Below, piece after piece: positions 4,983-29,459 of a stretch of DNA of 29,459 nt; position 1 is the stretch's first letter; each line of letters starts with the position of its first letter. The notes beneath the pieces are model-generated. The model did not search any database. It was not told the DNA's origin and was given only the letters and a program-made list of their open reading frames with translations. The position numbers were made by a program, and so were the translations under genes. Source of the DNA: a virus; the UHGV virus genome UHGV-0099905; one strand, 5' to 3'.

Positions 4983-5004
4983 AATAAGTAAGTATCTACT
5001 TATT
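4983..5004. promoter_or_regulatory. Palindromic motif copy AATAAGTA-agtatc-TACTTATT
   Basis: 8-bp perfect inverted repeat, 6-bp spacer, 40-60 nt upstream of the ATG at 4942; a TATAAT hexamer abuts it in gene orientation. Confidence 0.55.
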
Positions 5005-6729: not shown

Positions 6730-7278
6730 ATGAAACGTTCAGTTATTGCGGCTACTGTATTAGCATCTCTTTTTATGAGCGCAGGATCATTTGCAGCAGA
6801 AGGGAGTACAGAGGGTCAGTTAACTATTAACGGTAAAGTCACAGAGACTACATGTCAGTTCCTGAGCGGTAGTGAGAATACAACAATTTCGATGAGCGAA
6901 ATTGGTCGTGATCAATTTGAAAATGTAGAAGTTGGCTCCCCCGTTACTACTTATTCAAATACAACATCTTTACCACTAAAAGTTAAGTGTACCGGAGGAA
7001 AAGAACCAAGAATTACCTTCTCCAGCACCCAATTTGAAGGAACGGATTCAAATATTATTCGCAATACTGGTGATGCTAGCGGTGTCGGTTTCGCTGTTTT
7101 TTTGGGGAAAGGTACTGATTCTAGCAACCGGATTTCTGGTAATAGACCTATTAAGTTAACACCAACTACTAATGGTGAACATGAGTTACATTTTACGGCA
7201 CAATACGCAAAAACAGCTGTTGATGTGGGTACTGGCGAAGTTAGTTCTGCGATAACAATGACCGTTGTAACAGATTAA
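6730..7278 (+). CDS. Fimbrial major subunit (chaperone-usher pathway)
   Basis: Signal peptide MKRSVIAATVLASLFMSAGSFA, about 180 aa, first in operon before chaperone and usher; AGGA SD upstream. Confidence 0.7.
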   Translation: MKRSVIAATVLASLFMSAGSFAAEGSTEGQLTINGKVTETTCQFLSGSENTTISMSEIGRDQFENVEVGSPVTTYSNTTSLPLKVKCTGGKEPRITFSSTQFEGTDSNIIRNTGDASGVGFAVFLGKGTDSSNRISGNRPIKLTPTTNGEHELHFTAQYAKTAVDVGTGEVSSAITMTVVTD

Positions 7279-7333
7279 CATGATGTTTATCGGCGGCTTC
7301 GGTCGCCGATTTTCAATCGCAAGGATTGTTATC

Positions 7334-8014
7334 ATGAAAAAATTAATAGCCTTCTTACTAACCGTAACGGTCCCATCTGCGTGGGGCGGTGTCTATATTT
7401 ACGGCACTCGCGTTATTTATCCGGAACAGAAAAAAGAGATTGCAGTTCAGTTAATGAATGAAGGTGAGCGTAGTGCTCTTGTTCAGTCGTGGATTGATGA
7501 TGGCGATGCCAGCCTTCCTCCGGAAAAGATTAGTGTACCTTTTGTGCTGACTCCACCGGTAGTTCATGTTAGTAAGGGTGAAGGACAGCAACTGAAAATT
7601 AAACAACTGGCGAACACTCTACCTAAAGATCGCGAAAGTCTGTTCTTCCTTAATGTACTGGATATTCCACCTAATAGTGAGAAATACGAAGGCAAGAATC
7701 TGATTAAATTCGCGATGCAAAATCGTATCAAATTTATTTATCGCCCAAAGGGTATAACAAGAGTCGATAAAGAGAGTTTTTCCCGGATTAATATCAGACC
7801 CGTTGATAGAGGCATTAACATAAAAAATAATTCAGCGAACTGGATAACCATTCCTGAATTAACCGGGAATGCGAAAATTAATAAGGAGACACTACTGCTG
7901 GCACCCTGGTCAGATCAGACTGTCAAAACGACATCCGTTGTTAACTATTACAATGTTACTCTGATTGATGATCATGGAAACTATTTGAGTGAAAAAATAA
8001 AAACTGCCAAATAG
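7334..8014 (+). CDS. Periplasmic fimbrial chaperone (PapD-like)
   Basis: Classic chaperone N-terminal pattern GVYIYGTRVIYPE...; start moved to ATG at 7334 (MKKLIAFLL signal peptide) behind AAGGA, rather than the track start at 7280. Confidence 0.85.
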   Translation: MKKLIAFLLTVTVPSAWGGVYIYGTRVIYPEQKKEIAVQLMNEGERSALVQSWIDDGDASLPPEKISVPFVLTPPVVHVSKGEGQQLKIKQLANTLPKDRESLFFLNVLDIPPNSEKYEGKNLIKFAMQNRIKFIYRPKGITRVDKESFSRINIRPVDRGINIKNNSANWITIPELTGNAKINKETLLLAPWSDQTVKTTSVVNYYNVTLIDDHGNYLSEKIKTAK

Positions 8015-8031
8015 ATTATCAGGGATTGGTT

Positions 8032-10518
8032 ATGTCAAAGTTTAATTCTATTACACTGGCTATTCTGTCAGTATTAGCGACTTCGCATACATGGGCTAAG
8101 GGTGAAACGTTTAATACCAATTTTATGATTGGTGGTTTAAATGGGGAGAAAATTTCTAACTACCATATTGATAGTGATAAGCCGATGCCGGGTATCTACG
8201 CTATGGATGTTTATCTGAATAATCAATGGCGTGGCCACTATGATATTGATATTAAAGATGACCCTAATGCAACATGTTTATCCATGGAGCAATTAAAGCA
8301 AATTGGGATCCTCACTGAAGGAATTAGTATCGATAAAGGCGTAGAATGTGTACCACTTCGGGATGCTGTCCAGGGAGGCAGCGTCGACTATGATATTGGG
8401 CATTTTAACCTAAAATTAAGCGTGCCCCAAGCCTATGTTCTGGAATATGAACATGGCTATGTTCCGCCTGAAGCATGGGATCGCGGGATTAACGCATTAT
8501 ATACATCTTATTATGCCAGTCAGTATTACAGTGATTATAAAAACGGCGGAGATGATAAAAGTAGCTATCTAAATCTGAACAGTGGGTTAAATCTCCTGGG
8601 CTGGCAGCTGCATTCAAATGCCAATTATACGAAAAGCGACGAAAACAGCGGTAAATGGAAGAGTAACACGCTATATCTGGAACGTGGAATTCCACAAATT
8701 CTCGGCACGTTTCGCGCAGGTGAAATGTATACTGGTTCTGATGTTTTTGACTCCGTGCGTTTTCGCGGCGTGCGCCTTTGGCGCGATATGCAGATGTTAC
8801 CGAACTCTAAACAGAATTTTACTCCTGTGGTACGCGGCGTTGCCCAGAGTAACGCACTCGTCACCATAGAACAAAATGGTTTTGTGGTTTACCAGAAAGA
8901 AGTACCGCCAGGCCCATTCGCCATTGATGATTTGCAACTTTCTAATGGTGGGGCAGATTTGGAAGTTATCGTCAAAGAAGCTGATGGTTCAACGTCGTAC
9001 TATCGGGTGCCTTATTCATCGGTGCCAAATATGTTGCAACCTGGCGTTTCTAAATATGAATTTTCAGCCGGACGTAGTCATATTGAAGGAGCCAGCAATC
9101 AATCTGATTTTATCCAGGGAAGCTATAAGCATGGTTTCAACAATTTGCTGACAGGTTATGGCGGCACGCTGTTATCTGATAATTACTCATCGTTTGTTCT
9201 TGGAACAGGATGGAATACACCGATTGGTGCTATATCGGTTGATTTTACCCATTCATACAGCAAGCAAGACAACGGTGATGTGTTTAACGGTCAAAGTTAT
9301 CAGATTGCCTGGAATAAATATCTCTCTCAGAGCGGAACACAATTTTCTCTGGCGGCCTGGCGTTATTCCTCTCGGGGTTATCGTACTTTTAACGATCATG
9401 TATGGGCAAATAACAAAAATAGATACAATCGAGAAGACAACTCAGGCTATGACATTGCCAACTACTACCAGTATGATTTTGGTCGCAAGAATAGCTTTTC
9501 TTTAAATATCAACCAGTCATTACCGGAAAATTGGGGGTATCTGGCGATCAGCGGTCAATGGCGAGATTACTGGGAACGTAGCGGGACAGGGAAAAATTAC
9601 CAACTAAGCTATACGAACTCATGGGAACGTCTAAGTTATACCTTGTCGGTTAGCCAGACATACGATGAGGATAACAGCGAAGACAGACGCATTAACTTAT
9701 TTTTCTCAATCCCCTTCTCGTGGCGTGATAATATCACCGAAAAACGACGAGATTTATTTATCTCTAACTCGACCACATTTGATAAAGACGGCTACCAGTC
9801 AAATACTACCAGCCTCAGTGGTGTAGCTGGGAACCGTGATCAGTTCAGCTACGGGGCTAACTTTAGCCATCAACAACAGGACAGCGAAGCAACAGCAGGT
9901 GGAAATCTGATTTGGCGTGCGCCAGTGGCTACCATTGGTGGCAGCTATAGCCAGTCGAAAAAATATCAACAGATAAGTGGTAATATTCAAGGTGGTTTAG
10001 TCGCGTGGTCAGACGGGATAGCACTGGCTCCCAGACTTTCAGATACATTTACCATCGTCCATGCTCCGGGGCTGGATGGGGCTGCGGTACAGGGGTATCG
10101 TTACCTGAGCACGGATAGCCGAGGTTACGCTATTTATGACAGCCTGACGCCGTATCGTAAAAACACGTTGATGCTGGATACTTCTGACAGTCAAAGCGAT
10201 GTGGCACTACTGGGCAACCGTAAAAGCACCGCTCCTTATCGTGGGGCCGTTGTGATGACGCAGTTTGATACTGACAAACGTAAACCCTGGTATTTCCTTG
10301 CTCAGCGCCCGGATGGTTCTCCATTATCGTTCGGTTATGAAGTTGAAGATGAAAGCGGTAAGAATGTGGGCTTGGTAGGACAGGGAAGTCGGATATTTAT
10401 TCGCACTGATGATGTTCCCGCATCGATTCGCGTCTCGGTTAATAAACAGCAGGAACAATTCTGTACTATTACCTTTGATAAAGTTATCGAAGAGAATAAA
10501 GTTTATATTTGTCGTTAA
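8032..10518 (+). CDS. Fimbrial outer-membrane usher
   Basis: About 830 aa, signal peptide, usher N-terminal FNTNF motif, beta-barrel-type composition; ATG at 8032 behind AGGGA. Confidence 0.9.
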   Translation: MSKFNSITLAILSVLATSHTWAKGETFNTNFMIGGLNGEKISNYHIDSDKPMPGIYAMDVYLNNQWRGHYDIDIKDDPNATCLSMEQLKQIGILTEGISIDKGVECVPLRDAVQGGSVDYDIGHFNLKLSVPQAYVLEYEHGYVPPEAWDRGINALYTSYYASQYYSDYKNGGDDKSSYLNLNSGLNLLGWQLHSNANYTKSDENSGKWKSNTLYLERGIPQILGTFRAGEMYTGSDVFDSVRFRGVRLWRDMQMLPNSKQNFTPVVRGVAQSNALVTIEQNGFVVYQKEVPPGPFAIDDLQLSNGGADLEVIVKEADGSTSYYRVPYSSVPNMLQPGVSKYEFSAGRSHIEGASNQSDFIQGSYKHGFNNLLTGYGGTLLSDNYSSFVLGTGWNTPIGAISVDFTHSYSKQDNGDVFNGQSYQIAWNKYLSQSGTQFSLAAWRYSSRGYRTFNDHVWANNKNRYNREDNSGYDIANYYQYDFGRKNSFSLNINQSLPENWGYLAISGQWRDYWERSGTGKNYQLSYTNSWERLSYTLSVSQTYDEDNSEDRRINLFFSIPFSWRDNITEKRRDLFISNSTTFDKDGYQSNTTSLSGVAGNRDQFSYGANFSHQQQDSEATAGGNLIWRAPVATIGGSYSQSKKYQQISGNIQGGLVAWSDGIALAPRLSDTFTIVHAPGLDGAAVQGYRYLSTDSRGYAIYDSLTPYRKNTLMLDTSDSQSDVALLGNRKSTAPYRGAVVMTQFDTDKRKPWYFLAQRPDGSPLSFGYEVEDESGKNVGLVGQGSRIFIRTDDVPASIRVSVNKQQEQFCTITFDKVIEENKVYICR

Positions 10519-10528
10519 AGGATTTTTT

Positions 10529-11539
10529 ATGAAGAAATATTGGTTTTTGTTTTTGTTGATTATTCCATTTTTTGGGCAGGCGAAATGTACCCCTAAGGGA
10601 ACTTGGACAGCAACTCAACCAATTACACTGGACTTAACAACGGATTCAACAATAGTAAGTTTTAATCCCAACCTGCAAGGATCTTATGAATGTAACTCGA
10701 GGGGGGATAAGATGTATTTTGCAACAACGTTAGATGACTATATTGTTGAAATGAAAGATGGCTCCAGCAATAAGTCTATTTTTATTAAATTAAAGCTTGA
10801 GGCTGATGGATTTCCTGTAGAAACGAGTGGTTCGCTTCTGTCGCCTAAAACCTATTCTGTTGCTGATACCATTAATAATAAACAACTGAAGTTAACGGCC
10901 TCATATATACCACCAACTAAATATAGAAGTGATCGTGGTGAAGCGGTAGAGGGGGATTCATTCGAATTGAAAAAAGCGGCGGCTAATTTTTTGTCTGATA
11001 ATACATGTAGTTCAAATATTCTTTCATGGATAGCATGCTATGTTTTTGGATTGTTAAATAAAGGTGAAGCTTACGAACAAAAACTAACCATTAATGTTAA
11101 ACACAAACCCACAACCTGTCGTTTCTCGCAACCGACTTACGAAATAAGAATACCAGAAACAACGATAAGTGAAATGCTATCTGCCAATAACTCAAAATCA
11201 GGTTCTGTAGATCTGGTCCTAAATTGCGATAGTGTCTATAACGTCACGACTAATCCAGTGACTTTTAAAGTTGAGCGTGGTGTGTGGGATGATAGTGGAA
11301 CAATATTGAAAAATACATTGTCCGATGGTGCTAAGGGTGTAGGGTTCCAGATTTACAATGGTAATGCAACGACACCGTTAAAGCTGGGCGATACCCTGAT
11401 GAACAGATTACCTAAAATGGCGGCTATTCAGGAGCAGTACATCTTCCCGATTACCGCAAAATACGTTCGCGTGAAAGAGGAAGCTTTACAGCCTGGGGAA
11501 GTTCAAGGCCAGGCGATATTTGCCGTATCCTACGACTAA
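10529..11539 (+). CDS. Fimbrial minor subunit / tip adhesin candidate (two-domain size, about 337 aa)
   Basis: Signal peptide MKKYWFLFLLIIPFFGQA starting at ATG 10529 after SD AAAGGA; the track start at 10409 overlaps the usher and is rejected. Confidence 0.6.
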   Translation: MKKYWFLFLLIIPFFGQAKCTPKGTWTATQPITLDLTTDSTIVSFNPNLQGSYECNSRGDKMYFATTLDDYIVEMKDGSSNKSIFIKLKLEADGFPVETSGSLLSPKTYSVADTINNKQLKLTASYIPPTKYRSDRGEAVEGDSFELKKAAANFLSDNTCSSNILSWIACYVFGLLNKGEAYEQKLTINVKHKPTTCRFSQPTYEIRIPETTISEMLSANNSKSGSVDLVLNCDSVYNVTTNPVTFKVERGVWDDSGTILKNTLSDGAKGVGFQIYNGNATTPLKLGDTLMNRLPKMAAIQEQYIFPITAKYVRVKEEALQPGEVQGQAIFAVSYD

Positions 11540-15854: not shown

Positions 15855-15866
15855 ATGATTCCCTTT

Positions 15867-15890
15867 AATAGGTATGTACTTACTTATCTA
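15867..15890. promoter_or_regulatory. Motif copy AATAGGTATGTACTTACTTATCTA
   Basis: Near-identical to the copy at 24921-24944 (21 of 22 aligned positions); directly upstream of the replication operon. Confidence 0.55.
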
Positions 15891-15991
15891 AGTGAGCGAA
15901 TCATAGCGACTGGAGATATTTTTGGGAAGTGGAAACGGAAGGGAGTTGTTCTGGTGGGTGTCTTTTAAAAGACCTGCTTCCGTATATATTT

Positions 15992-16006
15992 AATAAGTTA
16001 CTTATT
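15992..16006. promoter_or_regulatory. Palindrome AATAAGT-T-ACTTATT in the AT-rich region upstream of the GIY-YIG gene
   Basis: 7-bp perfect inverted repeat with 1-bp spacer, same half-site as the other motif copies. Confidence 0.45.
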
Positions 16007-16136
16007 ATTTATATACAGAAACAGGCATAACTTGTCGTCTTAGACACCCAGAAGCTCTACACTTTGAGCCTGTAAAATTGATTAAAAACTTATGTGTAAA
16101 ATAGAACGCATTAGTCAGTAGCTAAGAGATGCAATA

Positions 16137-19134: not shown

Positions 19135-19320
19135 TCACCAACCGCAAACTCTCTCTCCCATCGTATTGTGAAAAAGGATTTGGCGTTCGGTTTCTTCGGT
19201 CATTACATCGTCATTGCTGATATAAATAGGTTCAGCGCCATCGCAGAACAACACGCTGGTGGTCTGTGGCTTAATTACGCACCCACTTATCATGCAGCTC
19301 ACGATGAATGGCAGAAGCAT
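19135..19320 (-). CDS. Outer-membrane spanin candidate (lipoprotein), embedded in a different frame in the i-spanin gene
   Basis: Lipoprotein signal MLLPFIVSCMISGC with lipobox; overlaps the 3' part of 19271-19522 out of frame, the classic Rz/Rz1 arrangement. Confidence 0.5.
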   Translation of the reverse strand: MLLPFIVSCMISGCVIKPQTTSVLFCDGAEPIYISNDDVMTEETERQILFHNTMGERVCGW

Positions 19321-19524: not shown

Positions 19525-20217
19525 TTACACTAATCCTTTCTGGTGCTTGCGAACCTGGGACCAGGCAATGAATGCTGCCACAAGAATGGTAGCTACGCCA
19601 AAGATGATGCGTACCGTATCTCCACTGGAGATATTGCCTTGCGCTTTATCCATTGCGGCAGAAACTTGAGGCATAACGTCAGCAATTTGTGCAAGGCCAA
19701 TACCTGCAGTGACTGTAGCACCTGTGGTTTCTTTTGTTACAGGAACGGCTTTTACAGCCTTTACCGGTTTGACAATGCCGGCACGTCGCAGCCCTTCTTC
19801 GATAAGTTCTGGTGTATACCAGCTATTGGGGGTTTTCAGCGGACCTCGGCCATTTTCATGTCTAATGATCGCCTCTACCAGCGGTCTTAAGGTCTCGTAG
19901 TCATGCAGATCGATAATCATATCTGGTGCTACTCCAACGGCTTTGGATACCTCGTTCACATAAGCCAAAGTGTTGTTCTCATGTGGAGGCGCCCAGCGTT
20001 CGATGACTTCGCGGATCGTATCAATGCTGGAGCCATCTTTTGCGCGGCGCTTGTCGTGGTAAGTAATGAGTGTCACTGCCAAAGCCCGAATCCCCCACAC
20101 GGGGTCTTTGAACGTGCAGAAACGCGGTTCGGCAGGGTTGTCAATTAGCCCCTGCCACGGCGCTCCTTTATCAAGATTACCGGGGTTGTTATTACGAATG
20201 CCTCTCGGAGTTTTCAT
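19525..20217 (-). CDS. Putative cell-wall hydrolase (endolysin-like) with C-terminal hydrophobic anchor; family not recognised
   Basis: Position between holin-like gene and spanins; N-terminal motif RGIRNNNPGNL; C-terminal TM IIFGVATILVAAFIAWSQV; start placed at ATG 20217 behind AGGAGA. Confidence 0.35.
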   Translation of the reverse strand: MKTPRGIRNNNPGNLDKGAPWQGLIDNPAEPRFCTFKDPVWGIRALAVTLITYHDKRRAKDGSSIDTIREVIERWAPPHENNTLAYVNEVSKAVGVAPDMIIDLHDYETLRPLVEAIIRHENGRGPLKTPNSWYTPELIEEGLRRAGIVKPVKAVKAVPVTKETTGATVTAGIGLAQIADVMPQVSAAMDKAQGNISSGDTVRIIFGVATILVAAFIAWSQVRKHQKGLV

Positions 20218-20230
20218 CCTTGATCTCCTG

Positions 20231-20554
20231 TTATTGCAATCCATTTTTTACGCCATACGCGGCCAATCCTAAAAGCAGTACGGTAATAATGAACGACGTT
20301 ATTTTCGAAACAATGCCGCCAAAGAACCCACTGGAGATGGTGTCGAGCCGGTTAAGAAGTTTGTCCAGATTGGAGTGCTGAATGCTGTGTTGTGCGGGCG
20401 TCATATCGCCAAAGTAGGTTTTGAGCTGGTCATTGACCTCCTGACCAATTTCCTCGCGTATTTCTTTACCTAATTTGCCTACGACTTCCCGAGCAACGAT
20501 TGAGGCGATGCGCTCAACCTGTTCAGTTGTGACTCCCGCCATCTCGTTCGACAT
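20231..20554 (-). CDS. Holin-like small membrane protein (single C-terminal TM)
   Basis: 107 aa from the ATG preceded by GGAGGA; C-terminal TM ITSFIITVLLLGLAAYGV; first gene of the lysis-like cassette; an extended -10 (TGGTATAAAT) lies upstream. Confidence 0.4.
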   Translation of the reverse strand: MSNEMAGVTTEQVERIASIVAREVVGKLGKEIREEIGQEVNDQLKTYFGDMTPAQHSIQHSNLDKLLNRLDTISSGFFGGIVSKITSFIITVLLLGLAAYGVKNGLQ

Positions 20555-20620
20555 GTTTTCCTCCATGAAAAGTCAAATCGGGATGGCGAATTTATACCAC
20601 AAATATTACCTTTTTTGTAG

Positions 20621-20632
20621 GTAAGTACTTAC
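20621..20632. promoter_or_regulatory. Perfect 12-bp palindrome GTAAGTACTTAC (motif copy) upstream of the lysis-like cassette
   Basis: Overlaps the stop codon of the Gly-rich gene; followed at about 25 nt by TGGTATAAAT. Confidence 0.5.
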
Positions 20633-21423
20633 ACACGAGAACCGTATATTGCTCCGACGGCGATCCATTGAGGGGCATTACCCATGACAGCAGCCCCAGC
20701 AGCCCCACCGCCATATCGATTTCCAGAGTTGCCATAACACGCTCCACCTGCCGCTCCAACATTGCCACCAGTACCGCCATGATTAGCGTTAACCCCAGAC
20801 CCAGTACCTGGAGCAGTAAGCGAAGCGGCCCCAGCAGCAGCACCACCATTGCCTGAATACCTACCTGCAGCACCAAATGGCCTGCCACCGCCACCACCTA
20901 CCAGATAGGCTCCGACAAAGCCGGCATCCCAATAGCCACCACCGCCACCACCGCCACCACCGCCACCACCGGCAATAGCACCATTATTGGTAATACGTAG
21001 TCTAGTTCCTATTGCATTCTTAATCGCGGCCCCACCAGCAGAACCCGCTGAGTTTGACCCGCCATTTCCTCCTCTCCCATATATGGTAACTCCACCATTA
21101 ATTACGAGGTTAATATATGAGTTTGATAAGTCACCAGGAAAGTCTAGGCAAGGGACTGTACTACTTGTAGAAACTAAATCCCCTGTAATAGTAACTACTA
21201 CAGGTGTAGAGCCAACAGAGCGTAAATATGATATTAATGTGTCTTTGTTATAATTGTGATTAGCCCCTATTGAGTAGTAAATCTCTTTTGACCTACCGGC
21301 CATCTGTGACATATTTCCTGCTGCCGACAATTGGACTGTGGTACGGGCAGCACTCATCCAACGTTGCCCTGTTTCGGAAACCGCTGATGATCCTATCCAT
21401 CCTGGAACATTTGAAATTGACAC
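20629..21423 (-). CDS. Glycine-rich protein (264 aa) downstream of the side tail fibre gene
   Basis: ORF in track; GTG start after GAGAGGG; central G12 run and GG/GN repeats; N-terminal non-repetitive domain. Confidence 0.6.
   Translation of the reverse strand: MSISNVPGWIGSSAVSETGQRWMSAARTTVQLSAAGNMSQMAGRSKEIYYSIGANHNYNKDTLISYLRSVGSTPVVVTITGDLVSTSSTVPCLDFPGDLSNSYINLVINGGVTIYGRGGNGGSNSAGSAGGAAIKNAIGTRLRITNNGAIAGGGGGGGGGGGGYWDAGFVGAYLVGGGGGRPFGAAGRYSGNGGAAAGAASLTAPGTGSGVNANHGGTGGNVGAAGGACYGNSGNRYGGGAAGAAVMGNAPQWIAVGAIYGSRV
20936..20973. repeat. Simple-sequence repeat (CCACCACCG)x4 encoding the poly-Gly run
   Basis: Seen directly; the 9-bp unit keeps the reading frame. Confidence 0.9.
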
Positions 21424-24895: not shown

Positions 24896-24919
24896 GTGTG
24901 GGCGTCCCCCCGCCCACAC
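24896..24919. other. GC-rich hairpin (9-bp stem GTGTGGGCG / CGCCCACAC, 6-nt loop) in the 5' leader of the tail-fibre gene
   Basis: Seen directly between the motif copy and the RBS. Confidence 0.5.
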
Positions 24920-24920
24920 A

Positions 24921-24944
24921 AATAGGTATATACTTACTTATTAT
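24921..24944. promoter_or_regulatory. Motif copy AATAGGTATATACTTACTTATTAT
   Basis: Near-identical to the 15867-15890 copy; 45-70 nt upstream of the tail-fibre ATG. Confidence 0.55.
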
Positions 24945-25012: not shown

Positions 25013-26533
25013 TTAACTGATGCCCGACATGGAAAATGCGCCACTTCCACGGCTGATTAGCATCACGGGCGAATAAATATGTGTCTGTGATGAACTGGTC
25101 ACTTTTACCGTAACAGCAACAGTTCTTGAGGTAACATTGTTAAAAGCAGCGTAAAGAGTGCCACCGACGCCTGTAGAACTTGTCGAATTAAGATCAGGGT
25201 CTCTGTATGTTGCCCCCTTACCAGTGGTTGCGGTCTTCGTCACTCCATTGCAGGTAAATTGGGCTGCAACAGGGCCGACGCCCCCCGTATATACATTTAT
25301 TGCCACATAAATATTTTTGGGCAATGCAGACGAAGAAGAGTCTGTATATGTCATTGTATATGTGCCGTTGTAACGAACTGAGAAGTCATTGCCCACATAC
25401 ATGTTAGCGACATCGCCTACGAAGTGATCTGCTTGTACCGTGCCTCTGAATGTTCCGCTGGTAGCCTGTATTTCTCCTGTGAATTTGCCATTCGTTGCGT
25501 AAACGGTGCCTCTAACAGTTACATTGTTAAACTCTGAGTTCCCGTTTTTATTAATATGCCACCCCGTCATCCCGCTTGAGTAATCGTTGGACTGAATGAA
25601 GTTGCCTATTTTGGCGTTATCAATGGTGCCGTTCTTGATATAAGCTCCGTTCATATAAGCCACACCGGCATCAATAACGAATGGCGTTGTAATTTTCCCA
25701 TTAACGGAGTTCACCAAACCAAAGCGATCTGCCTGCACCAAAAACTGCGATAGACCTGTTGTGTCGATGCCCAACGCTATGCCGGCAACATATTTTTGGC
25801 CTCCGCTGGTGGAGGTTTCCATTTTCAGCGTCCAGGCTGTTGATACCTTCTTGTTCGTATCAGCAATAGCTGTGGCCTGTTGTTGAATTGTTGCTGTATT
25901 TCCATCTACTGATGCTTTTAAGGTGTCAACTCTCCCACTTAGTGCATTGTCGGCGCTTGACGCATCAAACGTCACCTTGAAGCGCATCGTCTGGTGTTCA
26001 GCGCCGACTCGCTCGGTTTTCTCGCGTTTGTCCTCATCGACCGGCTCGTCATCGCCACGGGAGAGCGCTTCCAGCGCTTCAAGATCGATAACGGACGCTT
26101 TGGCGAGTGTTGCCGCCATTTCGTCGTCATACGGGGCGATATCGGACAACCGGTAGTCGATTTCAGACTGGATTTCTTCGATTAAGCGCTGCAAAGCGAC
26201 CTGATCGTCTTCGCCGTAGCGCTCGTTGTCGACGAGGGAAATCTGTTTAGCCACCAGATCGTTAATTTTGCCCACGGAGATGACGGGAACCGTTGAAATG
26301 CCCTGCTCCATCGCGGCACGCCAGCGGTGTTCACCACCGAGGATCTCAAAAATGCCCCCGTCCAACTCCCGCGCCAGAATTGGCTTAAAAAAGCCCAATT
26401 TTTCGATAGAGCCTTTCAGTTTTTCGAAGTTTTGCGCCCCAACGGAGTTGGTATTCCAGGGATTCGGACGCAGGTTCGCGACTTCCACCTGCAGAATCGT
26501 AATTTTCACACCCATAATTCTGATACAATCCAT
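25013..26533 (-). CDS. Chimeric protein: N-terminal ParB/Srx-like nuclease domain fused to a lambda J-type (host-specificity / tail-tip) C-terminal region
   Basis: N-terminal LRPNPWN...ILGGEHRWRAA resembles ParB box motifs; an acidic linker follows; the C-terminal half (FLVQADRFGLVNSVNGKITTPFVIDAGVAYMNGAYIKNGTIDNAKIG...) resembles the C-terminal receptor-binding part of J-like proteins; single uninterrupted ORF. Confidence 0.55.
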   Translation of the reverse strand: MDCIRIMGVKITILQVEVANLRPNPWNTNSVGAQNFEKLKGSIEKLGFFKPILARELDGGIFEILGGEHRWRAAMEQGISTVPVISVGKINDLVAKQISLVDNERYGEDDQVALQRLIEEIQSEIDYRLSDIAPYDDEMAATLAKASVIDLEALEALSRGDDEPVDEDKREKTERVGAEHQTMRFKVTFDASSADNALSGRVDTLKASVDGNTATIQQQATAIADTNKKVSTAWTLKMETSTSGGQKYVAGIALGIDTTGLSQFLVQADRFGLVNSVNGKITTPFVIDAGVAYMNGAYIKNGTIDNAKIGNFIQSNDYSSGMTGWHINKNGNSEFNNVTVRGTVYATNGKFTGEIQATSGTFRGTVQADHFVGDVANMYVGNDFSVRYNGTYTMTYTDSSSSALPKNIYVAINVYTGGVGPVAAQFTCNGVTKTATTGKGATYRDPDLNSTSSTGVGGTLYAAFNNVTSRTVAVTVKVTSSSQTHIYSPVMLISRGSGAFSMSGIS

Positions 26534-26535
26534 TG

Positions 26536-26553
26536 TATAAGTACTTACTTACC
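26536..26553. promoter_or_regulatory. Motif copy TATAAGTACTTACTTACC (contains palindrome TAAGTACTTA) in the divergent intergenic region
   Basis: Lies 3 nt from the ATG of the minus-strand gene and about 45 nt upstream of the plus-strand helicase ATG. Confidence 0.5.
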
Positions 26554-26597
26554 ATAATAGCCAATTACCATACAAAAGGCACGAAGGAAAGAGGTTT

Positions 26598-28157
26598 ATG
26601 ACAGTTCGGATTGTATCGAATGCAGTCAATGCGCTGATTTCTAGCGCTGATGACAACGTGAAGCGGCTCGTTCAGGAGATGTTGAGCTATGAAGTGGAGG
26701 CTGGGGACTGGAAAGGAACCAGCACGATGTTCAACTGGAGCAAAAACGCGTTCCCGGCTGGGTTTGCGAAGCCAGTTGCAGCCAACCTTCTGAAAGCTGG
26801 CATCAAATGCGTGCATGTGCGCAAGGAAAAAGCTCCCGCGCTGGGCAAGCCGAACCCGGTAGTTAACCCATTCCCGTATAACCCGGACTATGCGTATCAG
26901 GATCAGACAGTGGAAACACTGGTGCGCGAAGGGATGATGATTGCCCAGATTGCGACGGGTGGCGGTAAATCGAACGTAGCGTGTAAGGCTGCTGCTCGCA
27001 TTGGTCGTATGACGCTGTTTTTAACCACGCGATCGGTTCTGATGTTCCAGATGGCAGAGAACTTCCAGAAATCCATCGACTACCGCGCGGAGAATGGCGA
27101 GCCGTGGCTGAAAGGTCAGAGAGTTGGGGTGATTGGATCGGGTGAGTTCCAGGTCTCGCGCCATATCAACGTTGCCACGGTGCAGACCCTGGCCAGTTTT
27201 CTCGAAGAGCCACCGCGCGACGCATCACCGGAGAAAAAACAGTACCACCTGAAGCGCCGGGAACTGGTTAAACGCTTCCTGTCCAGCGTTTCTCTGCTGA
27301 TTCTGGAAGAGGCACACGAATCATCTGGTTCTAACTTCTACGACATCGCCCGGTTGTGCATCAATGCCGACTACCGTCTGGCGCTGACAGCTACGCCGTT
27401 CATGAAGGACTCGACTGAAGCAAATATGCGTCTCATGGCCGTTGCGGGTCGCATCGAGATAAAAGTAACGGAGAAATATTTGATCGACAGAGGTATTTTA
27501 GCGAAACCATACTTTTTATATCATAAAATCGCGTACACTCCAGATGAGGCGCGGATTAGAGCCGAACTTGCTTCAAAACACCTGAATTTTCGGGTTGGAA
27601 TGAGCACGGCTTACCAGAAAGCCTATCAGTTAGGCATCGTCTATAATCTGGGCCGCAACGAAGCTATTGTGCGTGAAGCGCTAATGTACAAGAGTCACGG
27701 TCTGAACTGTATGACATTGGTTCGTCTGAAGCGTCATGGTCAGATCTTGATGGAAATGATGAAAGAGAGTGGCCTCAAGGTCGATTTCATCTACGGAGAA
27801 TCAAACCAGACTACCCGACAAGCAAAACTTAATAGTCTGGCGGCAGGCAAGATAGATGTTCTCATTGGTTCAACCATTCTGGATGTTGGTGTCGACGTTC
27901 CAAGCGTAGGCGCGGTGATTCTGGGTGGTGGCGGGAAAGCAGAAGTTGAAATGAGACAGCGTGTCGGTCGTGGCTTACGAGCCAAGAAAAATCAGGCTAA
28001 CGTGTGCTTTATTACCGACTTCATCGACGTGAGCAACAAATACCTCATGTCGCATTCATATGAGCGGAAACACATTATCGACACGACGCCTGGGTTTGCC
28101 GAGGGGGTCTTGCCGGTTGGCAGCACATTCGATTTCACTGTTTTGGATAGAGAGTAA
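26598..28157 (+). CDS. Superfamily II DNA/RNA helicase (DExH-type variant)
   Basis: Motif I QIATGGGKSN, motif II LLILEEAHE, motif III LTATPF, motif VI QRVGRGLR. Confidence 0.8.
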   Translation: MTVRIVSNAVNALISSADDNVKRLVQEMLSYEVEAGDWKGTSTMFNWSKNAFPAGFAKPVAANLLKAGIKCVHVRKEKAPALGKPNPVVNPFPYNPDYAYQDQTVETLVREGMMIAQIATGGGKSNVACKAAARIGRMTLFLTTRSVLMFQMAENFQKSIDYRAENGEPWLKGQRVGVIGSGEFQVSRHINVATVQTLASFLEEPPRDASPEKKQYHLKRRELVKRFLSSVSLLILEEAHESSGSNFYDIARLCINADYRLALTATPFMKDSTEANMRLMAVAGRIEIKVTEKYLIDRGILAKPYFLYHKIAYTPDEARIRAELASKHLNFRVGMSTAYQKAYQLGIVYNLGRNEAIVREALMYKSHGLNCMTLVRLKRHGQILMEMMKESGLKVDFIYGESNQTTRQAKLNSLAAGKIDVLIGSTILDVGVDVPSVGAVILGGGGKAEVEMRQRVGRGLRAKKNQANVCFITDFIDVSNKYLMSHSYERKHIIDTTPGFAEGVLPVGSTFDFTVLDRE

Positions 28158-28159
28158 GC

Positions 28160-28438
28160 ATGAGCGAGAAACGCGCTATTAACTGCCAGGTTAAGTTAAC
28201 CGAAAAAGCAAACGATAAACTAGAGACCTTTCAGAATCGACTGCGTGAACGCAGCATAAAACTGTCAAAGGCAGACATCATCAATCTGGTACTGTCCAAT
28301 ATGACGATGGGTGATTTTGATAAGATAGCTACGTCATTAGAGACTACTGCAAAGGCTCGTGAAAAGGTCATGAAGATTTACGAAAACTCGGGTATGACCA
28401 AAGAAGATCTGGCCGATATTCTAAAACGCCTCGATTGA
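28160..28438 (+). CDS. Hypothetical protein (92 aa), translationally coupled to the helicase
   Basis: ATG overlaps the helicase stop (TAAGCATG); helical, charged. Confidence 0.5.
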   Translation: MSEKRAINCQVKLTEKANDKLETFQNRLRERSIKLSKADIINLVLSNMTMGDFDKIATSLETTAKAREKVMKIYENSGMTKEDLADILKRLD

Positions 28439-28443
28439 GCATT

Positions 28444-28468
28444 ATGGCGCCTTGAGGCGCCATGATTT
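28444..28468 (+). terminator. Hairpin ATGGCGCC-ttga-GGCGCCAT followed by a short T-run (terminator or attenuator)
   Basis: 8-bp perfect inverted repeat seen directly, followed by GATTTTC. Confidence 0.35.
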
Positions 28469-28497
28469 TCGTAAAGATAAGGATTTTGTTCGGCACA

Positions 28498-28920
28498 ATG
28501 AAACACGTATTACTTCCTCTGGTTGCTGCCTCCGCGTTACTTATCACTGCATGTCAATCTCGTCCTATTCCTGTCTCTGAGGCAAAGCCAGCACCGCAGA
28601 CCAGAATATTCAAATACCAATCTCCGGCGGCATCGACGCTGGTGGTTATGAGAGATAAAAGCATGGTGGGCGCCGGTTGCGACGCATCGATCTTCATCAA
28701 TGGCGAAACCGTTGCAAAACTGGAAACAGGTGAAAAAGTCACTTTTCATCTGGATGCCGGAGAATGGATTGTTGGCGCCTCACTCGAAGACGCTGGGCTG
28801 TGCGCACTGAATCCTGCTCGTCAGGAACGCGAGACGATTACCAAAGCTGGCGAGACGAAAGTCTTCCGGGTGTTCACCAGTAATGCTGGTGACATCGATA
28901 TCTTACCAACGACACTGTGA
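28498..28920 (+). CDS. Lipoprotein (about 140 aa precursor)
   Basis: Signal peptide MKHVLLPLVAASALLITAC with lipobox; start placed at ATG 28498 rather than the track start 28462. Confidence 0.6.
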   Translation: MKHVLLPLVAASALLITACQSRPIPVSEAKPAPQTRIFKYQSPAASTLVVMRDKSMVGAGCDASIFINGETVAKLETGEKVTFHLDAGEWIVGASLEDAGLCALNPARQERETITKAGETKVFRVFTSNAGDIDILPTTL

Positions 28921-28924
28921 CGAT

Positions 28925-29092
28925 ATGACGAATATTACTGACATCACCTACGGGATTCCTGCAGAAGTCTGGCCGCGCGATTACACCAACGTGGAGAAAG
29001 CGCTGATGTTCTGGCGCAAGTCTCTTATTCCTGTAAGGGTCACGATGGAAGATGGTCAGGTGTTCTGCATGTATGTTCAGGGTCTCATGTAG
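28925..29092 (+). CDS. Small hypothetical protein (55 aa)
   Basis: ATG 5 nt after the lipoprotein stop; no recognisable motif. Confidence 0.3.
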   Translation: MTNITDITYGIPAEVWPRDYTNVEKALMFWRKSLIPVRVTMEDGQVFCMYVQGLM

Positions 29093-29095
29093 TGG

Positions 29096-29459
<364 letters not shown>

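Follow-up and report, generated by a model that had tools for sequence, protein, structure and literature searches.

A UvsW-family helicase and a small downstream gene as a probable two-gene operon of a defective SSU5-type phage-plasmid

Introduction

The superfamily 2 (SF2) helicases D10 of phage T5 and UvsW of phage T4 and the archaeal helicase XPB are one another's closest characterised relatives, and branch migration has been demonstrated for D10 (PMC5180179). Here we describe a relative of these enzymes encoded in the UHGV virus genome UHGV-0099905, a stretch of 29,459 nucleotides that we analysed whole and refer to as the window. Its sequence assigns the window to the phage-plasmids of the SSU5 type, elements that are widespread in Enterobacteriaceae and bear cargo for resistance and virulence. 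Transcriptomes have been published by Misson et al. for Escherichia coli LF82 carrying one such element, Cyrano (PMC9928086, S1 Table). We found nothing specific in the literature on the function of the SSU5 helicase or of its ParB-like neighbours.

An earlier note, made from the letters of the window alone, had read positions 26598–29092 as an operon of four genes, namely an SF2 helicase, a 92-amino acid protein, a lipoprotein, and a 55-amino acid protein, that shares a palindrome-bearing promoter region with a divergent ParB-like gene, and had suggested a defence or superinfection-exclusion unit. The open reading frames (ORFs) that it listed are all present where it placed them. Their grouping and the proposed role changed on closer analysis. 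We consider it probable that the locus is a two-gene operon of the phage-plasmid, made of a UvsW-type helicase and a small partner, that serves replication and recombination and is expressed in the plasmid state, with cargo genes following it.

Results

The helicase gene (26598..28157, + strand) encodes 519 residues, with a UvsW_N-like N-terminal domain (about residues 1–95) followed by two RecA-like domains; Pfam DEAD, ResIII, and Helicase_C are all matched above cut-off. In an alignment of 31 homologues reaching down to 48% identity, motif I (TGGGKS, residues 120–125, 26955–26972), motif II (EEAH, residues 237–240, 27306–27317), motif III (TAT, residues 264–266, 27387–27395), and motif VI (QRVGRGLR, QRxGRGLR in the family, residues 454–461, 27957–27980) are invariant or nearly so, which bears out the earlier description of an SF2 helicase with these four motifs intact. 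The gene is under purifying selection, with omega (the ratio of nonsynonymous to synonymous substitution rates) about 0.02.

Searches with the single sequence gave generic SF2 matches and, among solved structures, archaeal XPB, UvrB, and T4 UvsW. When the Protein Data Bank (PDB) was searched with a profile of the helicase family, T4 UvsW (2OCA) ranked top (E 6e-26) and XPB second. An HHalign comparison of the family with the annotated UvsW of phage Phi1 aligned residues 19–502 with 16–491 over 442 columns (probability 99.8%, E 2e-29, 23% identity), and this alignment takes in the N-terminal domain from residue 19 (LSYxVxGAE...WDGRS...FPAGF). Pfam UvsW_N (PF21241) is matched by 19 of 31 full-length family members (best E 3.6e-8), and the window helicase aligns over 99–100% of its length with family relatives from the set scanned for PF21241. 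An AlphaFold2 model of the helicase, with a predicted local distance difference test score (pLDDT) of 89.7, was matched by Foldseek to XPB (E ~1e-23) and to UvsW 2OCA (E 2.9e-22), as well as to many phage "SSL2-type" helicases among viral models. A tblastn search of annotated phages returned a full-length homologue, 39% identical and annotated UvsW, in Rhizobium phage RHph_N2_6, together with 33% matches to the C-terminal half of Herelleviridae helicases and 22–23% matches to T4-like UvsW. The records of Cyrano and of the Rhizobium phage already label the orthologue UvsW. The RED motif after motif III is a feature of XPB; it was not seen after motif III of the window helicase, where the sequence is TATPFMKDSTEAN, and the Pfam ERCC3_RAD25_C match stays under its cut-off (22 versus 27 bits). 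Because profile, HHalign, UvsW_N, fold, and literature evidence agree, we filed the protein as a UvsW-family helicase and conclude, from these comparisons, that it is a full-length member of the T4 UvsW/T5 D10/XPB-like SF2 family.

Two nucleotides past the helicase stop codon begins an ORF (28160..28438, + strand) for a helical, charged protein of 92 residues (phrog_1466). We counted its occurrence, and that of the other neighbours, in two sets of 80 IMG/VR loci, one close and one distant. The 92-residue family lies 3' of the helicase in 80/80 close loci; the tight linkage of the helicase to a small downstream gene, which the earlier note had pointed out, is thus a constant of the close relatives. 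Homologues are 35% identical in Moellerella and 28% in Methylomicrobium-type loci, and only 25 relatives, all without annotation, came up when 1.8 billion representative proteins were searched with a profile. Omega for this ORF is 0.06–0.16, indicating purifying selection, and the low values for both ORFs argue that both are real genes. The small gene changes much faster than its neighbour: its nonsynonymous rate (dN) is about seven times that of the helicase, and pairs of elements whose helicases are 92–93% identical in amino acids have 92-residue proteins only 56–69% identical. DNA homology to Cyrano stops about 20 nt before the helicase stop. A ribbon-helix-helix (RHH) or helix-turn-helix assignment of the small protein was tried and not adopted, with nil results from Pfam (18 members), from the PDB profile search, and from HHalign against the small protein of the window's partition locus.

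The unit formed by these two genes appears to end directly after the second one. An intrinsic-terminator-type hairpin, TTATGGCGCC-TTGA-GGCGCCATGA followed by TTTT (28442..28469, + strand), has a GC-rich stem of 10 bp at 28442–28465 and a folding energy of −24 kcal/mol (z = −2.6), and none of 200 shuffled sequences folds as stably. The hairpin is conserved in SSU5, there with five T's. Both it and the promoter described below were placed by alignment and folding; simple sigma-70 and terminator scans flagged neither. The published Cyrano transcriptomes, given as normalised counts for a lysogen grown overnight in lysogeny broth with an element median of 9.8, show the UvsW helicase CYRAN_118 at 46 (about 5 times background) and the orthologue of the 92-residue protein, CYRAN_117, which the authors list as a "moron," at 114 (12 times background), while the next gene, CYRAN_116, drops to 9 (PMC9928086). 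On the divergent side, the ParB gene CYRAN_119 is at 5.0, the detection floor, and CYRAN_120–123 and the terminase are at 7–9.5 (PMC9928086). These counts indicate that the helicase and 92-residue genes are transcribed as a pair in the plasmid state, that the divergent operon is silent, and that transcription ends after the 92-residue gene. This end agrees with the hairpin and with the boundary given by comparison of relatives (see below). Since hairpin, comparative data, and published RNA-seq all place the end of the unit after the 92-residue gene, the operon has two genes and not four. The earlier note had correctly noticed the hairpin between this pair and the lipoprotein.

Helicase and ParB-like gene are separated by a divergent regulatory region (26534..26597), which holds a palindrome, a −10-like box, and the Shine-Dalgarno sequence of the helicase (AAGGAAAGAGG). 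The palindrome TAAGTA-ct-TACTTA lies at 26538–26551 and the −10-like CATAAT at 26553–26558. Aligning the intergenic regions of five relatives showed, some 40 nt ahead of the helicase ATG, an arrangement conserved in SSU5, Cyrano, and Moellerella: ACTTACTTA and then TATAAT, which in the window reads CATAAT. Cyrano and Moellerella have a perfect TAAGTA-N6-TACTTA at the helicase promoter, and the window and SSU5 share a variant whose left arm is 4 nt closer. At the same position, distant relatives have TAAGTCAC-N3-GTGACTTA followed directly by TACT or TATAAT; among 64 non-redundant upstream regions, 20 have the strict form (background, 0.0045 per 120 nt) and many others have looser forms. Searched through the whole window with up to two mismatches, TAAGTA-N6-TACTTA gives 11 matches, several of them overlapping, where 0.71 are expected (0/100 shuffles). 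The sites, often extended to ACTTACTTA, are at 1376–1393, 4985–5002, 15865–15886, 15987–16011, 19272–19289, 20614–20631, 24919–24940, and 26538–26551, and those compared with the ORF map fall between ORFs. Further copies are found in SSU5, where they lie between structural and early genes. The palindrome is thus likely a genome-wide promoter or operator element, and its putative binder a conserved dimeric DNA-binding protein, for which the ParB-like proteins may, by analogy, be candidates. We also considered a 10-nt inverted repeat, GATACAATCC/GGATTGTATC, flanking the intergenic region. Over the whole window it is not significant, since 7 of 100 shuffles give an equal count. The repeat falls within or close to the 5' end of each gene, and Moellerella does not preserve it; it was dropped for TAAGTA..TACTTA.

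Across the regulatory region, the relatives keep a constant set of neighbours. A divergent ParB-like gene stands directly upstream of the helicase in 73/73 close and 62/62 distant loci that have enough flanking sequence (135/135), there are two ParB-like genes in 70/73 and 59/62 (129/135), and an ABC ATPase lies within 4 kb in 70/73 and 62/62 (132/135). We also viewed the neighbourhood in SSU5, Cyrano, Moellerella (59% helicase identity), a 99-kb metagenomic contig (50%), Methylomicrobium (45%), and a Rhizobium phage (39%). In all of them, one side reads terminase, about four small genes, ABC ATPase, ParB-like gene, second ParB-like gene, and the other side, divergently, helicase and then a small ORF. 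Among the proteins of the neighbouring block, Pfam recognises only ParB_N and ABC_tran. This places the helicase/ParB block, as judged from gene order, in the core phage backbone adjoining the packaging genes of Gamma- and Alphaproteobacterial phages and not in an island. An ORF of the Tad2-like/DUF2829 family sits inside the ParB-ParB-ABC block of distant relatives, at L006 5437–5727, L007 5437–5760 (Methylomicrobium-type), and L008 3959–4261 (RHph_N2_6); anti-Thoeris activity is known from this family. In L006 and L007, the gene in the position of the terminase large subunit bears an intein with a LAGLIDADG domain.

In the window itself, most of that block is gone. The divergent ORF (25013–26533, − strand, 506 residues) is an in-frame chimera in which ParB residues 1–192 are followed by ~310 residues from the C terminus of a J-like tail-tip protein, with the junction placed by blastn at 25955–25957. 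The ParB-like part (25958..26533, − strand; phrog_723) is a remnant of the first ParB-like gene that has lost its last ~40 residues; the ParB_N domain (Pfam, E 8.5e-13) covers residues 14–103, with the second ATG, at 26515, as the probable conserved start. DNA identity of 98–99.7% to SSU5 and to one IMG/VR relative begins exactly at 25958. From about residue 193–195 onward the chimera is the C-terminal part of a lambda-J-like tail-tip protein (25013..25954, − strand; Pfam Phage_Tail_Tip E 5e-46, lambda J C terminus; phrog_31, central tail fibre J), 77% identical to residues 1210–1353 of SSU5_020. On the SSU5 map, the junction corresponds to a deletion of ~24 kb, with one end at codon ~193 of the first ParB-like gene and the other close to the 3' end of SSU5_020. 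Gone with it are the second ParB-like gene and the ABC ATPases, neither of which is present at the window locus, and the terminase, portal, capsid, tail/tail-tube, and tape-measure genes. Having lost its packaging, head, and tail-shaft genes, the element is a defective phage-plasmid, unable to make virions. Five plasmid records, from E. coli and Enterobacter, span the junction with full-length or near-full-length matches; two further records were matched in two pieces. By this comparison, the helicase side is all that survives of the conserved divergent unit in the window copy. The earlier note's link between helicase and ParB-like gene across a shared palindrome therefore holds in the relatives (135/135 loci), whereas the window's own ParB-like gene is a truncated chimera. 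With the ParB partner reduced to a remnant, no functional helicase-ParB unit can operate in the window.

The surrounding sequence agrees with an SSU5-type element maintained as a plasmid. DNA identity to Salmonella phage SSU5 is 96% over 25958–29093, and 24900–29459 matches E. coli plasmids, pLAO59 among them, at 100% identity; pLAO59 is annotated with an SSU5-type phage-plasmid backbone (DnaB-like helicase, primase, ParA-type ATPase, tail fibre, and lysis genes) and carries a fimbrial operon and toxin-antitoxin pairs as cargo. At 19528–21423 the window keeps SSU5-like holin and endolysin genes together with a T-even Gp38-type tail-fibre adhesin (Pfam GP38, E 2e-70). Beside the replication genes, 6730–11539 holds a complete chaperone-usher fimbrial operon as cargo (YehD-like subunit, chaperone, usher, adhesin-like subunit), and 3' of it, at 11.7–12.3 kb, is a Phd/Doc toxin-antitoxin pair.

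Downstream of the hairpin lies a gene for an outer-membrane-type lipoprotein of 140 residues (28498..28920, + strand; phrog_890, E 2e-52). Its conserved start is the ATG at 28498, not that at 28462, and the signal peptide MKHVLLPLVAASALLITA leads directly into the lipobox Cys at 28552–28554. In 12 homologues down to 54% identity, C19 (the lipobox Cys), C61, and C102 are invariant and the +2 residue is never Asp, so that the earlier call of a genuine lipoprotein with a canonical lipobox stands. Pfam DUF2846 is matched weakly (19.6 bits, cut-off 34.3), and the DUF2846 literature yielded no function. The family comprises 48 clusters, all from SSU5-like elements of Enterobacteriaceae. A Cor-like exclusion role was tried as a candidate and set aside: BLASTP against SSU5 Cor matches residues 8–30 only, which is signal peptide, and the mature domain is unrelated. 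SSU5_023–025, including the gene for the superinfection-exclusion lipoprotein Cor, are not in the window.

The lipoprotein gene is a variable accessory cassette. It adjoins the 92-residue ORF in 25 of 74 close loci, and none of the distant loci examined for this gene carries it. Its co-occurrence with the helicase is therefore partial. The slot in which it sits, between the 92-residue ORF and a FljA-like gene (28439–28924 in the window), varies among these 74 loci: about 25 have a 199-residue Cyrano-type gene, with or without a different, 266-residue lipoprotein on the opposite strand, and 17 have nothing recognisable in a gap of ~180 nt. We conclude from this distribution that the slot downstream of the operon is recombination-prone and class the lipoprotein as optional cargo of the moron type.

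The last ORF of the presumed operon, the "55-aa protein," proved to be the 5' fragment, 55 codons long, of a FljA-like "repressor of phase-1 flagellin" gene (28925..29092, + strand; Pfam PF03614 Flag1_repress, E 1e-25; phrog_1444). It covers profile positions 1–50 of 170, or the first ~55 of ~175 residues, and residues 28–55 are identical at 27 of 28 positions to the annotated start of SSU5_121. The gene is full-length (~148–175 residues) in 73 of 74 close loci, and the C-terminal part of FljA was not found in the following 3 kb of the identical plasmid pLAO59. Homology to SSU5 stops at 29093. From 29094 to the end of the window at 29459 (− strand) lies the end of an IS3-family element that continues past the window, with a transposase C terminus at 29096–29455 (Pfam rve/rve_2/rve_3); among the matches in 2239 of 5426 complete E. 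coli genomes are 100% identical copies annotated as IS3 family transposase. Since the FljA-like ORF ends where SSU5 homology stops and the IS3-family element starts, it is a gene stump and not a small protein. The near-universal presence of intact FljA-like genes in the SSU5-like relatives suggests that these phage-plasmids normally modulate host flagellin expression.

Discussion

Our preferred explanation, a two-gene UvsW-type helicase operon of a phage-plasmid, would work as follows. Its homology to T4 UvsW and T5 D10 makes the helicase most likely an ATP-driven remodeller of branched DNA, expected to branch-migrate Holliday junctions, to regress stalled forks, and to unwind D-loops and R-loops. 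With these activities it may serve the ~100-kb element in replication restart and in recombination-dependent replication. The palindrome found at many promoters of the phage family would occupy the −35 region of the operon promoter. Judging from the close relative Cyrano, the operon would be on in the plasmid (lysogenic) state and the divergent ParB-ParB-ABC-terminase operon off. The small protein, made from the same transcript, might modulate the helicase or the expression of the operon, although we draw this last step tentatively. The hairpin would end the operon, with the lipoprotein cargo next and then the FljA-like repressor gene, destroyed by the IS3-family element.

Several results weigh against this explanation. 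Identity of the helicase to T4-type UvsW is just 22–23%, and the N-terminal domain search that recognises UvsW_N in relatives leaves the window helicase itself under the Pfam threshold (not reaching E 0.01). In most distant loci the ORF after the helicase has no match to the profile of the 92-residue family, and this family may therefore not be an obligate helicase cofactor. The 92-residue protein showed similarity to no Pfam family and to no RHH family (Pfam scans of 18 members; PDB profile searches), and its AlphaFold2 monomer model is poor (pLDDT 61), which makes Foldseek matches meaningless. It was also considered as UvsW.1, since the gene order is that of T4-type phages, but the two share no sequence similarity: HHalign against Phi1 UvsW.1 gives a probability of 0.1%, and PDB profile searches return no UvsW.1 entry. 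The expression data come from Cyrano, a 79%-identical relative (helicase 92% identical in amino acids, 92-residue ORF 55%), and not from the window element, whose operator has a variant left arm unlike Cyrano's. Finally, this explanation does not account for the constant pairing of helicase and ParB-like genes, from which one might suspect that the two act together.

That pairing is the starting point of a reading we think unlikely, in which the helicase, two ParB-like proteins, and small ABC ATPases are one DNA-processing machine of the lytic cycle, for example for concatemer processing or recombination before packaging in the manner of archaeal XPB-Bax1. The divergent layout would then reflect partnership, and the helicase of the window would be the leftover of a dead machine. 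The adjacency is indeed constant (135/135, 129/135, and 132/135 loci) down to 39–47% helicase identity while the genes on the opposite side vary, the block stands directly upstream of the terminase genes, and the nearest solved structures include XPB bound to the nuclease Bax1. However, the two sides are uncoupled in Cyrano lysogens, with the helicase at about 5 times background and ParB at the detection floor. All loci come from one viral lineage with a conserved genome architecture, so the synteny may be historical, and no physical or genetic interaction is known. The helicase is also intact here, in a family under strong purifying selection, even though its presumed partners have been deleted, at an undated time. 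Broader still, and improbable in our judgement, is the idea that helicase, two ParB-like proteins, and small ABC ATPases, with the palindromic operator at the divergent and many other promoters, make up an undescribed regulatory or DNA-processing module of ~100-kb phages and phage-plasmids of Gamma- and Alphaproteobacteria. In one version, the ParB-like proteins might bind the palindrome in the manner of KorB, as global regulators or clamps, and so switch the genome between its plasmid and its lytic programme, and the fast-evolving, lysogeny-expressed 92-residue protein would be a modulator.

The small protein could alternatively be a DNA-binding regulator with an RHH-like N terminus, autoregulating the divergent promoter region or expressed in lysogeny, and not a helicase cofactor; we hold this to be possible, if doubtful. 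By eye, its N terminus follows an RHH-like pattern (strand-like ..CQVKLT.., helix, turn, helix ..SKADIINLVL..), there are weak matches to phrog_4268 "transcriptional repressor" (E 1e-3) and to an antidote family (E 0.08), RNA of the Cyrano orthologue reaches 2.5 times that of the helicase and 12 times background in lysogens, and the protein evolves fast, as specificity determinants often do. Yet Pfam, the PDB profile search, and HHalign against the partition-locus small protein lend the RHH pattern no statistical support, and the weak matches fall in the C-terminal half, outside the putative RHH segment. In addition, the palindrome stays constant between elements whose 92-residue proteins share just 35–56% identity, which argues against the palindrome being the operator of this protein. 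Lysogenic expression and a moron-like character of the same orthologue could also be cited for the reading that we find very improbable, namely a prophage-borne unit of helicase, small protein, lipoprotein, and ParB-like nuclease that acts in anti-phage defence or superinfection exclusion. PADLOC does return defence helicase models for the helicase (PbeA, E 1.8e-22; type IV restriction endonuclease; DpdF; DrmA), the lipoprotein has a proper lipobox, and an SSU5-like Klebsiella plasmid lowers the plating efficiency of lytic phages and plasmid uptake, which the authors credit to a restriction-modification system (PMC8969562). These PADLOC matches, however, span the generic SF2 core only (best PbeA, 77 bits), with no partner genes of those systems present; PADLOC has no match for the 92-residue protein or the lipoprotein, and the ParB-like proteins match only the ParB-like domain of MTase_II models. 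The helicase's best profile and fold matches are UvsW and XPB, its block is backbone beside the terminase in Gamma- and Alphaproteobacterial phages, and the ParB gene is broken in the window. As for exclusion, the lipoprotein is missing from two-thirds of close relatives (present in 25/74) and from the distant loci examined for it, and its mature domain is unrelated to Cor. In place of the defence island that the earlier note had envisaged, we thus largely find the replication/recombination kinship (UvsW family) with conserved neighbours (terminase) and without steady lipoprotein co-occurrence that it had named as speaking against its own proposal.

Taken by itself, the result is an ordinary one: the genes are annotated ones that belong to the backbone of a common family of phage-plasmids, and the copy in the window no longer has its virion genes. 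The value of the result lies in the corrected annotation, with a two-gene UvsW-type operon, an optional lipoprotein, a gene stump, and a ParB deletion chimera. For SSU5-like phage-plasmids in general, the helicase/ParB-ParB-ABC layout beside the terminase, the genome-wide promoter palindrome, and the lysogeny-expressed, fast-evolving 92-residue gene deserve attention.

Compared with described systems, the cargo lipoprotein resembles Cor (phi80, N15, SSU5_025) and Llp (T5) in being a small prophage lipoprotein with a classical signal peptide and lipobox in a variable slot. It differs in that SSU5 carries a separate Cor gene, which the window has not, and in a mature part unrelated to SSU5 Cor, the one protein of the group with which it was compared. 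Archaeal XPB (Rad25)-Bax1 (6P4W/6P4F/5TNU) gives the best Foldseek matches to the helicase and ranks second by sequence profile. XPB is an SF2 helicase with an N-terminal DNA-recognition domain and a separately encoded nuclease, which parallels the pairing of helicase and ParB-like "nuclease" in relatives of the window; unlike XPB-Bax1, the window has no RED motif (TATPFMKD) and no Bax1 homologue, and the neighbours are proteins of the ParB/Srx fold.

The likeness to T4 UvsW (2OCA) extends over the whole architecture, a UvsW_N-type domain, two RecA-like SF2 domains, and a C-terminal helix, collinear over ~440 residues. In T4-type phages a small ORF, uvsW.1, likewise follows the helicase (seen in Phi1), but the window's small protein is dissimilar to UvsW.1. 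Against T4 UvsW the helicase has only 22–23% identity, and EEAH is invariant as motif II in its family. Its family always stands divergent from ParB-like genes, whereas T4 has no such genes. The T4 uvsW gene is a late gene; in contrast, the Cyrano orthologue is transcribed in the lysogenic plasmid state. T5 D10, likened here by description, falls in the same UvsW/XPB-like cluster and has been shown to branch-migrate and unwind three- and four-way junctions (PMC5180179). T5 is strictly lytic, and its gene neighbourhood differs from that of the window element. D10 is the best experimental model for the activity that we expect of the window helicase.

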